A stretch of 59,019 bases of DNA, the filler included, from Catajapyx aquilonaris (lineage: Eukaryota), in the NCBI GenBank assembly GCA_000934665.2. It is 2 parts of 2 records of this genome, joined end to end, with 100 filler letters (N's around TTAATTAATTAA, not from the genome) between each part and the next. Parts side by side here need not be neighbours in the genome. Positions count along the whole stretch, not along the records: positions 1 to 29,455 come from JYFJ02004789.1; 1 more part is not named here. One strand, 5' to 3'. Position 1 is the stretch's first letter. Each line of letters opens with the position of its first letter. The translations under genes and the position numbers were made by a program. The notes beneath the pieces are model-generated. The model had not been told where the DNA came from. It did not search any database and saw only the letters and a list, made by a program, of their open reading frames with translations. This document shows, piece by piece, positions 2,066-7,574 of this stretch.

Positions 2066-3674
2066 TTAGCCCTTAATTTTATTTGCAATCCAATCCCTGA
2101 AATAATACGGGCTGGCGAATAACGTCATCATCGGACCGCATTCATTGAAGTCCCCCACGCTGGAGTTCCCGATAAGGTATCTCTCGCTGACAATGCCTTC
2201 CAGGTACCACCGACGGTCCAGAGATTCCCCCGATTGGAAGACCAGTCCTGAGCCGTAAGATACTCCTGCGCACCCATCTGTACCTATACATGTACGCACG
2301 GGTTTTAGAACATTTGATCAATACGATGGGATCCCACGTTAGTTATTAAGACAGACACATACTGAGCGTATATTGTATAATAGTCTAGTAGTACTAACCA
2401 TTGGGAGAAAGTGAGCATACTATGCTAAATTCAGGACCAACCCGGCGTTGCATCTCATTCGGAAGACTTCGAATGCAGTCATTTCGGTCGAGAAATAAAT
2501 TAATAGGAAAGTTTACCACCCGCCATTCATAGTCAATGTCTTCGGCTAAGCCCCAACCTGGAACCTACAGTAAATCAAAGCTATATTAATAGTGTGCACC
2601 GATCGCATTTTAGCATCGTCGATTTACAGAAATATATTGGTTACCTCTCCGATGCTTCCTGGAGCCAAGTGTGAGAGTGCATTTTTCCAGGAAGTCTTTG
2701 GCAAACAAACTGGCCTCACGTTTAATGTCATCTGAGCAGGACGATCCAACTCCAGGATGGCTACGAGTATCGACTCGCTCATGAATATTTGCTTCACCTG
2801 GAATGTGGAGACAGGCATCTGTTCAAAATACCTAATTAGTCCGAATGCATTATCACTTGCATCAAATTCTTGCTGATTGGCATCCTTGATGACGTAAGAG
2901 CTGCTGGACTTGCCAAGAATGACTTTGAAGGAAGATGGAGGTCCATCATGTCTTGTGAAGCATCCTCTGTCTAGAATGAAACTACGTATTTGGATTACAC
3001 CACAAGGAGTAGGTTCAGTATAGTGATCATTCATCATCCCAAATGCTCAGTATAGTGGAAGTTCGGTACATTGACTGAACACTATACTAAAAATTCGACT
3101 CCTGAACCGAATCCCGAACATTGTCTGATTTGGGATTATGTCACAAATGACACTGCAAAAACAATGTTGCAGAAACAACTAATATTAACCTGTGATGATG
3201 AACATGTCCTTTACAAGCGAGCCTTCGCAGATATTGATCTGGCCAATATACGATGATGGCCTGAGAAAGTAAATAACAGCATGCCACGGCCAGCTGCTCC
3301 TGGATGTGACCTCGGACCCTTCTCTTATGCCACATTCTATTTGAAAATATGCAATATAATATTATTTAATATCATTAACAATATTGTTAAAATCAATGCC
3401 TTACCCAAGAGGCAGTTGAAGTTGGGGAAGAGGCCTCTAGACCACGATCCGTTTCGTTGGCATAGCCTTGTGTCACTGACACCTCCGTCCCTGGCAGTGT
3501 AATATGCACCGCATTTTAAGGTAGCTACGGTGCCTTCCGGAACATCTCTTTCCTTGCAGGGAATTGTAGCATTGTTGTGGACACATTCAACTAACAGGCC
3601 AGGTCCGTCTTCTACGATAGACGGACATGTTACGGGTGTGGACGTTGATCCTTGATCCTCTCCAGTCGGGTCTG
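2066..3674 (-). CDS. Module B: sushi + serine protease homolog (non-catalytic)
   Basis: TAGHC is TDRGC, the NDIG segment is deleted, GDSGG is GVSYG and the IxxG activation motif is deleted. All exons remain open, indels are in frame, and Cys, WPWH, RPVCLP, GWG and RRWYLEGIVS are retained. Confidence 0.8.
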
Positions 3675-5752
3675 CTGGACATATATATCCGATATAACAG
3701 TGAAGTAAAGGTCACGTTATACTGTAGAAGGTTAGATCAACTGAGAACAGATATTACCCACACTGGCAGAATCCTGAAACCACTTACGCCCACAAGCCAG
3801 TAGGAAACTAATGACTACGACAGCGTTACTTTCTCAACTATGCCAATACTTAACTGCTGGGATCTTAAACAGAGTGTCGGAGATCCAATTCCTGAAGTAA
3901 TACGTGTTTGTAAAGAATGTCACGATCGGATAGCAAGACTTGGGCTCATCTTCGGATTTCTTATTGTTGATTCCCCAACTGACGATGCCTTCCAGGTACC
4001 AACGACGGTCCAGAGCCCCACCGTATGGGAAAACCAGGCCTCCCCCGCTGTCTCCTGTGCATGTACCTGTACCTATAAGCACATACAGAGTAATGAATAA
4101 ATTGTACAAGATCATTCCTCTTCGTTTCATCTTTCAATTCGGGTCGGGCATGCAACGAGCCCTTTGATATTGAATTTTAGACAACATTTTATCAGAGGTT
4201 TGGATATCGACCTGGATCGAATAATTTGGATCTAACGCCAGTTGAACCTTGGTATTAGGAGGGCACACTTTTTACTAAACTAACCATTGAAAAGAGACGC
4301 GCATATCATTTCTGGGCCAATCCCGTCCTGCAGGTGATCAGGAAGTCTCCGAACACACTCGAGAAGATTCACGAAAGGAAGGTTTGCCACCCGAAGTTCA
4401 TCGGCAATGGTCCCGTTTTCGGTCAAGCCCCAACCTGGAACCTGATCAGACTTAGTACTCAGCACCTGTCACATGCTTCTGGTAAAAGTCAACATACTGA
4501 TCCAATGCTTCCTGCAGAAAAGTGAGAGAGTGCGATTTGCCATCTCTTGGGCAGGCAGACAGGTCTCACATCTAATGTAATCCGAGCAGGACGATCCAGC
4601 ACCAGTATGCCGATGTCGTTCTCGATCGGATGTGCAGAGTAGTACTCGTGCATGAATATTTGTTTCACCTGGAATGTAGGAAGCGGTGTTATTCGACACG
4701 CACAACCAAATATTGCTTCAGTTGCATTGTACTTGCATCAAACTCTTGTTGATGCTCGTCCCTGATGTCATAAGAGCTTCTGTATTTGCCGAGAATGACT
4801 TTCATGGAGGATTCTCGATATGGCACAGTTTCACCCTTGCGAGCTAAGCAGTGCCCAGCTGGATGAAATAAATTCTGTTATTGGCTATGAACCTATATCA
4901 AAAACACATGGGGATACGATGAGCATCCAGGAAAGTTAATGATCAAGAAGCAAAGCTCATTTAATGCTCATGAAAACTACAGGGACTACTAAGGATTACG
5001 AAATGACTAACCAGGGGCTTACATAACTATACTTAATTCATAAATGTAAGGAATATATGATGATAATAATATAAGAATTAATGAATATAAGGAAGACCTA
5101 TCAAATTATTGCAGAAACATACTCCATATACAAAACTATACATTATTAACCTGTAACGATGAACCTGTCCTGTACAAGCGATCCTCCGCAAGTATATTTC
5201 CAATCTCGTGATGTCCGCACGTAGATGGCGGCATGCCACGGCCAGTTTCCTCTGAAGGTAGGCTGACCTTCGAAGATTTGTAGCTCTGACGAAGTTGTTT
5301 TCTTGCCACAATCTGTTAGGTAAGGCGCAATAAATGATAAGTGCTAACAAAGTAGTTGACATTCATCGCCTTACCCAAGGCACAACTGTGAAAGCCGTGG
5401 GACCATGTACCGTCTGGTCGGCATTGGCTTCTGTCCCTTATTCCCAAGCCGGTATAATAATTCTCGCATGTGGATGTAGCTACGGTGCCCTCCGGAACAT
5501 TTCCTTTTTTGCAAGAAATTCCTGCATTGTTGTGGACGCATTCAATAATTTGACCTGGACCACTCGCCCGAAGAGGTGGACAAGACGCACGGGAATATCT
5601 GCACGTATGTTGGAATAATATTCAATTAAAATTCGTACTTACCGGTTGTTGTGGACTGTCAATGTTGCAGATCGATACTGGAGTAGCAACAGGTGTGATT
5701 GATATCCTTACCTTAAGGCACAGAGGATGAAGAACACACTGACAATTTTCAT
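2066..5752 (-). CDS. Secreted sushi(CCP)-serine protease gene, Limulus factor C / modular serine protease-like, with two tandem sushi-protease modules (active protease + inactive homolog)
   Basis: Hand-spliced exons (approximate): 5752-5712 (signal MKIVSVFFILCALR), 5598-5375 (sushi, CPPL...GTWS...C), 5312-5151 (CG...LQ|IFEG, WPWHAAIY, CGGSL), 4858-4737 (TAGHC), 4668-4498 (NDIG, RPVCLP), 4441-4285 (GWG), 4072-3855 or to the stop at 3834 (CTGDSGGG, RRWYLEGIVSWG). Module 2: 3773-3758, 3674-3405, 3336-3190, 2970-2861, 2797-2645, 2564-2399, 2283-2066. Intron positions and phases are conserved between the modules. Confidence 0.85.
3834..5752 (-). CDS. Module A: signal peptide + sushi + catalytically intact serine protease domain (could be a stand-alone isoform ending ...VKYWHS*)
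   Basis: His (TAGHC), Asp (NDIG) and Ser (GDSGG) are all present. The activation-site-like sequence is LQ|IFEG. RRWYLEGIVSWG resembles factor C-type proteases. Confidence 0.85.
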
Positions 5753-7574
5753 ACTTCAACTCGGGTGTAACCTACCAGTCTAACTCTCTCTAATATCTAC
5801 AAATTCCTGTTTGCGACCTTGAATACATATTGTACTCAACGCACATTCAGTGGCCACATTGTTCACGTGGCATAGTAATTTATCACTCTGCCCTGATGAT
5901 ATTCTTAGAAGCACAGCATCCTCAATCTCAAATGTTAGTAACGATGCAATATTTACACTTGACATCTCAGCATTGTAATTTCTAGGTTTCAGACTTACTA
6001 AAAACCGACCTTCATCATACACTGCATAAGGAACCAATGGCTGTAATGATTCTAAGAGTATACCGGTACTGAAGTTGCATTTACACATCGTCAAGTGTAT
6101 ACCTTTGCAACTTTACAACCAAAATTACTTCCGCCATATTTCCCTCGATTTTAATATAAATTCCTGCACGCCTTGGCCATTGCAGGCCTTACGTATCTCT
6201 CTCCCTCACCCTGCCACCACTTCCTATATTATTGACCACATTTCCGACATTTTTTCTCCCTTGGGCACGTTCGTCGCTGTACCAAAAATAATATACTCAC
6301 TCTGCAGTAATTTACTTGCATAAGTAGAGTTTAGCCTCAGTTTCAATAATTTCATTCAATATTTAAGCACTAAACATAGCCTATGAATCGGAAGGTTCAT
6401 TGTCTTTAAATGACATCACACGAATTTAAAAGGGGCGTTTCAGTTGGACAAATTTGTCAAATTTGGCCATAAATATATTTTTATCTAACGACCCAATGTA
6501 GCAGAACCTAATCACACAATGCAGGTAAATGCCATCCCCTTCGCGTGTTGTCAAAAAAACTGTAGTTCAGAAGCTCATAAAAATCGACTTTATCATTTCA
6601 GCAAGATCTTTTGACACTAGAAAATGAAGCGGCTAACGACATATGCATGTCCCGAGGGACGGCTTTAAAAATATCGACTGTTTACTTTGCATCCATGCAC
6701 TGGCTTATAAAATAACAGTAATTATTCGCTGCCCCCATTGATGGATCACTGTGATCGATCACTTGCCAAGACGGCCAATCAGGCCAGGGCGTCGCCTCGC
6801 AATATTCCCAATATCCTTCCAGAATCAACATCAATTTGACACACATGCCAATGACTCAAGTCGTTAACAAGCCCGGAACCGTCACGGAATCTTCAAATTG
6901 GGAAAAAATCAAGCACGCCTTTTGCAGTCAGGAAATAGACAAATAAAAACCAAATCAACCTCGGCCTGTTCTTGTCACAGAATTTTGTCTGCTGCAACTC
7001 CTTGTAAATGACGTTGGGAACAGCTGCCTATAGGAAACGTGGATAAAAGTCTCAATGGCAGGAACATTTCCCTTGGCTGCCTTAGAGAGTGACGTGGTTG
7101 TCTAGGGGCCGGAAGGAAACTCTTTGGAGTCGCATACAAAAGCCGTCCTCCGAGGAAATCCTGACGGAAGTTTTACTGCGGACGATGCAGTTAAGTCCGA
7201 CTGCTCAAGAAGTTGGGCAGTAAATCTTTCTAGCTAGACAGATACTGTTGGAACCTTAGAGCTTGGTGCTTGTCAGGTTTAATACACTTAACCTATATAA
7301 AATCAATGCAGACTAGCAACTATAATGCAACTCATGAGATAACCAAATAAAACGTGGCCTTGCACTTGCTCGCGGTTTGGCTCACTTCCGCCCAAGAAAC
7401 CGCGATGTTTTGTCAGTAAAAGCGGCTTATTTTGTCCGCACTGTAGCACATCTCACGTAATAATAATAAGCAGGTCAGCGCAAAAAAATAACTGAAGCGG
7501 ACACTTCAATATTGAAACACGATGTGTACCAGTATTAAACGGTGAGTAAATAATGCAGTCCTTTAACGTGTTAA

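Follow-up and report, generated by a model that had tools for sequence, protein, structure and literature searches.

Secreted chains in which an active serine protease (SP) is followed by a catalytically dead serine protease homolog (SPH) are known from insects. The architecture has been published as the "polypeptidases" of Tenebrio molitor (pSerP448, 900, 333, 382, pSerPH608, and pSerP614), and SP14 of T. castaneum is named as similar to them in the accessible part of that study (PMC11172050). The same part of the study places the polypeptidases in one clade with the modular protease Tm-MSP. Sushi domains, most often two per unit, precede each peptidase unit, the active SP comes first and the SPH second, and a conserved L|I activation site stands before every unit; SPH-SPH and SP-SPH-SPH forms also occur (PMC11172050, as far as accessible). 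In ModSP, HP14, and Tm-MSP, N-terminal LDLa repeats are present, a sushi domain lies directly before a non-trypsin S1A domain, and a role as cascade initiator, with autoactivation upon microbial recognition and cleavage of a clip protease, is characteristic. The domain content of the human splice form serase-1B is shorter than that of polyserase-1. According to the accessible text of PMC12255782, polyserase-1/TMPRSS9 likewise carries several protease domains in tandem within a single chain, and serase-1B is a splice variant of it. Polyserase-1/TMPRSS9 is, however, a type II membrane protein with three domains and of unrelated origin, and the comparison is an analogy only.

Here, we describe a locus of Catajapyx aquilonaris that adds one lineage to the insect SP-SPH polyproteins, a group that has been described but not studied functionally. 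The locus lies on the minus strand of the window, i.e., the whole stretch of DNA that was analyzed (59,019 nucleotides), and consists of two modules, A and B. Comparison with its paralogs suggests, with a probability of about 0.65, that it belongs, as one gene, to a lineage-specific tandem family of ModSP-related polypeptidases and that the A-B fusion is still made. What is new here is probably one more member of a described layout, with an unusual splice donor that could be cut at two neighboring bases.

In the exon model, module A comprises seven exons (5752-3834) and encodes 371 aa in the order signal-like segment, sushi, and S1 protease. Exon 1 (5712-5752) holds the start codon and a signal-peptide-like segment, which was called by eye, and ends in a phase-2 donor; a paralogous exon precedes SP-type first modules. 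It is joined directly, across a 113-bp intron, to the exon of a six-cysteine sushi (CCP) domain (5375-5598; Pfam Sushi, E 1.3e-5). The next exon begins the protease with the activation motif ELQ|IFEG (5151-5312; Pfam Trypsin, E 2e-7). Triad alignment and the exon model place the catalytic His (TAGHC) at 4737-4858 and, with Pfam, the catalytic Asp (ENDIG) at 4498-4668. Exon 6 (4285-4441) and the last protease exon with the Ser of GDSGG (3854-4072) are supported by Pfam and the exon model, the latter also by a check of splice routes, and the triad is thus complete. Position 189, as read from the sequence, is Gly rather than Asp, which suggests a non-trypsin specificity. Module A is under clear purifying selection, with a branch dN/dS of 0.17 (0.10-0.28). 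Among the matches listed, its best BLAST matches are sushi-SP proteins with or without LDLa repeats (31-35% identity), and a PDB search with the last A exon returned distant S1 proteases only.

Module B repeats the exon pattern and phases of A. Its first exon (3674-3405) encodes a linker and a sushi domain (Pfam Sushi, E 0.0024, just below Pfam's cut-off) and has tandem phase-1 acceptors, so that it starts at 3674 or at the ancestral 3671. The second exon (3336-3190) lacks the activation motif, the third (2970-2861) has Gly in place of the catalytic His, and the fourth (2797-2645) carries a 21-nt in-frame loss that spans the catalytic Asp102 loop, a deletion found in B alone. Exon 6 of the module pattern (2564-2399) is followed by the last exon (2283-2066), which has GVSYGSG for GDSGG and the stop codon. 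These losses, already listed in the initial annotation, agree with our alignment, as does its statement that the exons are open and the indels in frame: relative to a sister SPH, the six exons differ by +9, +9, -12, -21, 0, and +6 nt, all multiples of 3. All 14 cysteines are retained. In both modules the exon at the His position is followed by a GC-AG intron (4736-4669 and 2860-2798, minus strand), and 11 of the 12 family modules have such an intron there.

An AATAAA at 1907-1912, present also in the haplotype copy C8742, is the likely poly(A) signal of the whole A-B gene. Upstream, a conserved block (5795-5855) shares motifs with the sequence before the signal exon in all six gene starts compared and is a putative promoter. 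It contains a GGAATTT-like element, which we take to be possibly a kappaB-type site.

The gene has the features by which the Tenebrio proteins are recognized, i.e., likely secretion (from the signal exon called by eye), an N-terminal active and probably non-trypsin SP, and a C-terminal SPH, with sushi before each peptidase unit. It differs from them, as far as PMC11172050 is accessible, in having a single six-cysteine sushi in each unit, where they have two, and about 720 instead of 890 aa. Its B module is more degenerate and its junction donor is non-canonical. The activation site is Q|I in A and its paralogs and is deleted in B; since there is no conserved L|I site before each unit, we regard it as the same kind of protein but not the same subfamily. 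Compared with ModSP, HP14, and Tm-MSP, the gene shares the sushi directly before an S1A domain with an intact triad in A, but it has no LDLa repeats and carries an extra sushi-SPH unit.

Protease domains followed by dead protease domains on one chain are also seen in RZF33893.1 of Laodelphax striatellus, XP_034248420.1 and XP_034239851.1 of Thrips palmi, and the Logan proteins P0080 and P0056, with sushi between the units in RZF33893.1, P0080, and P0056. These relatives are only 20-33% identical to A, some have LDLa or two or three sushi domains, and the named ones are gene models. A sushi profile run against 1.84 billion representatives gave 262 matches; 20 of the 150 listed were scanned with Pfam and 10 were looked up. 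No close family member was seen among these 150. P0080 (1040 aa, on a 3557-nt contig) has the continuous order LDLa x4-sushi-sushi-SP-sushi-SPH in one ORF. Its matches to a gene of the genome studied here (G000:C275) fall into 11 segments (60-96% identity) distributed across 6.5 kb, and the Logan contig is thus most likely a spliced transcript. In this gene, a single phase-1 intron joins the SP to the following sushi at nearly the position used in the window's family. The P0080-orthologous gene (L027:1800-8400, minus; G000:C275:71807-78370) lies within a cluster of ModSP-like genes. Other searches were less productive: a search of longer proteins with A's last exon gave no close relative covering the junction among 34 candidates, a sushi alignment search gave one unrelated match among 8000 scored, and a metagenome scan gave one locus from 111 pattern matches, with a 15-residue match only. 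A literature search on multi-domain PD-PLD proteins returned none.

Evidence for the fusion comes from paralogs in the same genome. When this genome was searched with A's last exon, 46 matches were returned, of which the close ones are on five contigs. Exon mapping revealed SP-SPH, SP-SPH-SPH, and SPH-SPH genes on G000:C4758, forms that are also described for Tenebrio (PMC11172050, accessible part), and one SP-SPH gene and one SP with a different tail on C6305. C8742 and C11808 carry second, haplotype-like copies; C8742 is 95-97% identical and bridges the window gene to the first C4758 gene, and we infer that these copies are haplotypes and not very young duplicates. All six non-terminal paralogous modules, including the middle SPH of the triple gene, have a phase-1 donor in the same codon, right after F/L-x-I/V-P/L codons. 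Five of the six are joined in frame to the next sushi exon by a single intron of 104-406 nt without a microexon, with four CAG acceptors and one AAG, and each of the five terminal modules closes with a stop codon. A tandem chain made without a microexon is therefore the default of this family. The phase-1 intron permits stacking of sushi-protease units, as seen in the SP-SPH, SP-SPH-SPH, SPH-SPH, and SP-plus-another-tail genes of the cluster. One paralogous junction donor is also GC.

In the window gene, this junction is altered. Examples from the paralogs are CCA G|GCAAGT and CCG G|GTAAGT; the window gene and its C8742 copy have CCA GCA GTTAAGTAT, a net gain of 3 nt with T replacing the G at +1. 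The site, CAG TTAAGTAT (3846-3856), corresponds to N|GTAAGT, G|GCAAGT, or G|GTAGGT of the paralogs at that codon and is identical in C8742. The initial annotation gave the coordinates of a donor, a 16-nt microexon, and an acceptor that join A and B in frame. All are correct, and the joined model is a 724-aa open frame. It overlooked, however, that the donor is a mutated ancestral site, at which a cut before TT leads to direct in-frame fusion. Two registers are thus available. Cutting before TT makes 3854 the last base of the A exon (phase 1), and joining to 3674 or 3671, behind the acceptor AG that ends at 3675 or the second in-frame AG at 3672, keeps the frame open to the end of B. Cutting before GT (3854-3853), six codons ahead of the TGA, makes 3855 the last base (phase 0). 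We discarded direct splicing from this register to 3674 or 3671 as a way to the fusion, since it meets a stop after 14 or 13 codons. The GT register is in frame when the microexon is included, or when the GAG acceptor at 3657 is used. At the family level, the tandem on one ORF is canonical and in frame in all five paralogous joins, and in this copy it is open by three possible routes. Readthrough of the TGA at 3836 into the microexon donor was also considered; it is open in this haplotype and ruled out by a 2-nt insertion in the other copy.

Donors of this type have been observed in human cells. In human reporters, splicing of CAG TTAAGTAT and of CAG TTAAGTAg took place at -1 as well as at +1, with the choice shifted by context (accessible part of PMC6280755). 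Natural human TT sites are cited for FBXO9 and ETV1 (PMC6280755; PMC4856993), and a shifted U1 register at 5' splice sites is treated in PMC4856993 and also in PMC9311317, again in the accessible parts. The 11 bases of CAG TTAAGTAT cut at -1 (GT) and +1 (TT) in PMC6280755 (accessible part) are identical to those of the window. However, these sites come from human cells only, and in the present gene the choice of register would determine whether a fusion or a premature stop results. Our literature search for TT-AG introns in insects found none. The computed U1 duplex of the junction donor is -7.5 kcal/mol, compared with -6.9 to -13.7 kcal/mol for six paralogous junction donors.

Under the preferred reading of a retained tandem gene, the fusion most likely persists in a leaky manner from the donor mutated to CAG TTAAGTAT. 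Direct cutting before TT is a tentative candidate for the route, and GT splicing one base upstream with the microexon is a doubtful one; any further in-frame route, for instance through the GAG acceptor at 3657, is very unlikely. The candidate microexon (3758-3773, with AG and GT flanks) has weak sites: in matrices built from the family's 66 donors and 72 acceptors, which are mutually non-independent and include one mis-set acceptor, 4/72 acceptors and 2/66 donors score no higher. Of 3000 dinucleotide shuffles of the 180-nt interval, 478 contain a frame-restoring microexon of equal quality, as do 3 of the 48 windows taken from other introns of the family and one of five paralogous junction introns. 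Another threshold, the "weakest family site" (1829/3000 shuffles), was set aside because one acceptor coordinate was mis-set. The AG of the microexon is TG or deleted in alignable paralogs, while its 16 nt and both sites are identical between the two haplotype copies. From these comparisons, the microexon appears possible, yet not beyond chance and not conserved. The initial annotation used it to join A to B; that it is the designed join is not supported, and paralogs use a single phase-1 intron without one. Introns of about 80 bp, which it called typical of this gene, are within range but not typical: 37 of 60 family introns measure 54-84 nt, and 33 of those measure 72 nt or less.

Variation in B bears on whether this module is still selected. 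Between the haplotype copies, all nine indels in the junction and B are intronic (721 intron versus 1167 exon bp; p = 1.7e-4 if uniform, on the premise of equal indel rates in introns and exons), B has no stops, and all 14 cysteines are kept. Four haplotype pairs with intact donors behave likewise (11/11, 2/2, 4/4, and 7/7 intronic indels). The dN/dS of B had been proposed as a check of the locus; on 292 ungapped codons, with one paralogous exon truncated in the alignment, the branch value is 0.66 (bootstrap 0.44-1.35). This is near the 0.45-0.73 of sister SPHs with intact donors, but it is not distinct from 1 and is compatible with neutrality. Between haplotypes, pN/pS of B is 0.47 (8 versus 5 changes; Fisher p 0.18), or 0.39 with the junction included. 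B looks to be still under constraint. The earlier claim that A and B form one gene and that B is not a pseudogene gains support in the sense of a maintained pseudo-enzyme, not an old pseudogene, through the paralogous joins and the intronic indels.

The most serious alternative, although unlikely, is that the donor mutation broke the fusion, so that only free A is made, while B, orphaned not long ago, is carried along in the 3' UTR and has yet to decay. Free A would then arise by intron retention, by the GT register with its stop 14 codons on, or by a cryptic donor, GGC|GTAAGT (3782-3790; last exonic base 3788), 46 nt past the stop. This donor is canonical and stronger than the junction donor, with 10 of 66 family donors scoring no higher than it, and could capture most of the splicing. 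The absence of the canonical phase-1 donor from both haplotype copies fits this alternative, as do the weak microexon sites (4/72 and 2/66), the stop that ends direct GT-register splicing, and the Asp loop deleted in B alone. The pN/pS of B is also the highest of the five haplotype pairs (0.12-0.29 in the other four), and its dN/dS range includes 1. However, pN of B (0.009-0.010) lies inside the 0.007-0.012 of the other pairs, and its nine indels avoid exons just as in the pairs with intact donors. Furthermore, the copies differ 6 nt upstream of the shared donor and by an insertion just downstream of it. Differences on both sides suggest that the donor change is probably older than the split of the two copies. 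If neither the TT donor nor the microexon is used, the locus would be a commonplace example of C-terminal module loss.

A bolder reading, which we consider improbable, is that the GT-to-TT mutation was kept in a working gene, that the choice of register by one nucleotide, with or without help from a newly born 16-nt microexon, sets the ratio of free to tethered protease, and that the animal tunes this ratio. The junction of this copy could show, in a natural gene, whether the spliceosome of an invertebrate accepts a TT donor or exonizes a new microexon to rescue the frame.

The initial annotation had proposed that the locus makes either free or tethered protease, by retention or microexon; a selected, regulated switch of this kind could also work by TT or GT register. 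Every route is present in the sequence, the two haplotype copies agree fully in the microexon and in its two splice sites, and the human polyserase-1 splice variant serase-1B offers a precedent (PMC12255782, accessible part). Nevertheless, none of the five paralogous junctions needs or conserves the microexon, its AG being TG or deleted where alignable, and chance yields its equal in 478/3000 shuffles. The free-protease tail, which ends at the TGA (3834-3836) met on retention of the junction intron, is ordinary intron sequence; its frameshift by 2 inserted nucleotides in the second haplotype copy speaks against selection for a short isoform. The stretch from A's stop to B holds no AATAAA, and when 12 poly(A) hexamers were looked for over 3860-3340, the sole occurrence was an ATTAAA within a B intron. 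A selected switch is thus quite improbable. The free protease, if any, would be a by-product of the damaged donor and not a regulated isoform. It is hardly credible that B forms a gene apart, with a start of its own: 26 codons past A's stop are open, hydrophobic, and signal-peptide-like, but there is no in-frame ATG (the sole ATG in 3900-3640, at 3682, is out of frame, in line with the earlier reading), the interval is merely 160 bp, and the promoter block and signal exon precede first modules, whereas inspection showed neither of them in the 104-406-nt junctions ahead of SPH modules.

For the retained tandem gene, the ancestral and main useful product would be one secreted chain of about 718-724 aa. 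It would consist of a signal peptide, a sushi domain, an active chymotrypsin-fold protease, a Ser/Thr/Pro linker, a second sushi domain, and a dead protease homolog. The zymogen would presumably be activated by a cut at Gln|Ile, after which the sushi domain may stay attached by a disulfide. Since B has no activation site, it may remain uncut and act as a tethered, non-catalytic binding or damping module. SPHs are known as cofactors from clip-domain SPHs, which function in prophenoloxidase activation. These have a clip domain and undergo activating cleavage, whereas B has a sushi domain, no clip, and no activation motif. Given its similarity to ModSP-type proteins, the A-B protein may have a role in melanization or Toll signaling.

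Further family members lie in the window and on other contigs. The next family gene begins in the window with its upstream block and signal exon (968-1008, minus). In this haplotype, about 960 bp that are absent from C8742 follow (1-960), and the remainder of that gene is on G000:C4758. The window segment 1316-1898 is likewise missing in C8742. On G000:C4758, a first module whose catalytic Ser is replaced by Asn (L021:1824-3407, minus) makes an SPH-SPH gene. On G000:C6305, an SP module uses the same phase-1 donor to reach a Ser/Thr/Pro linker and then a cysteine-rich segment (L023:7900-8346, minus), which has no Pfam match and takes the place of the sushi-SPH unit. Two lone exon fragments on the same contig (L023:6875-7292, minus) represent a decayed family copy between two intact genes.
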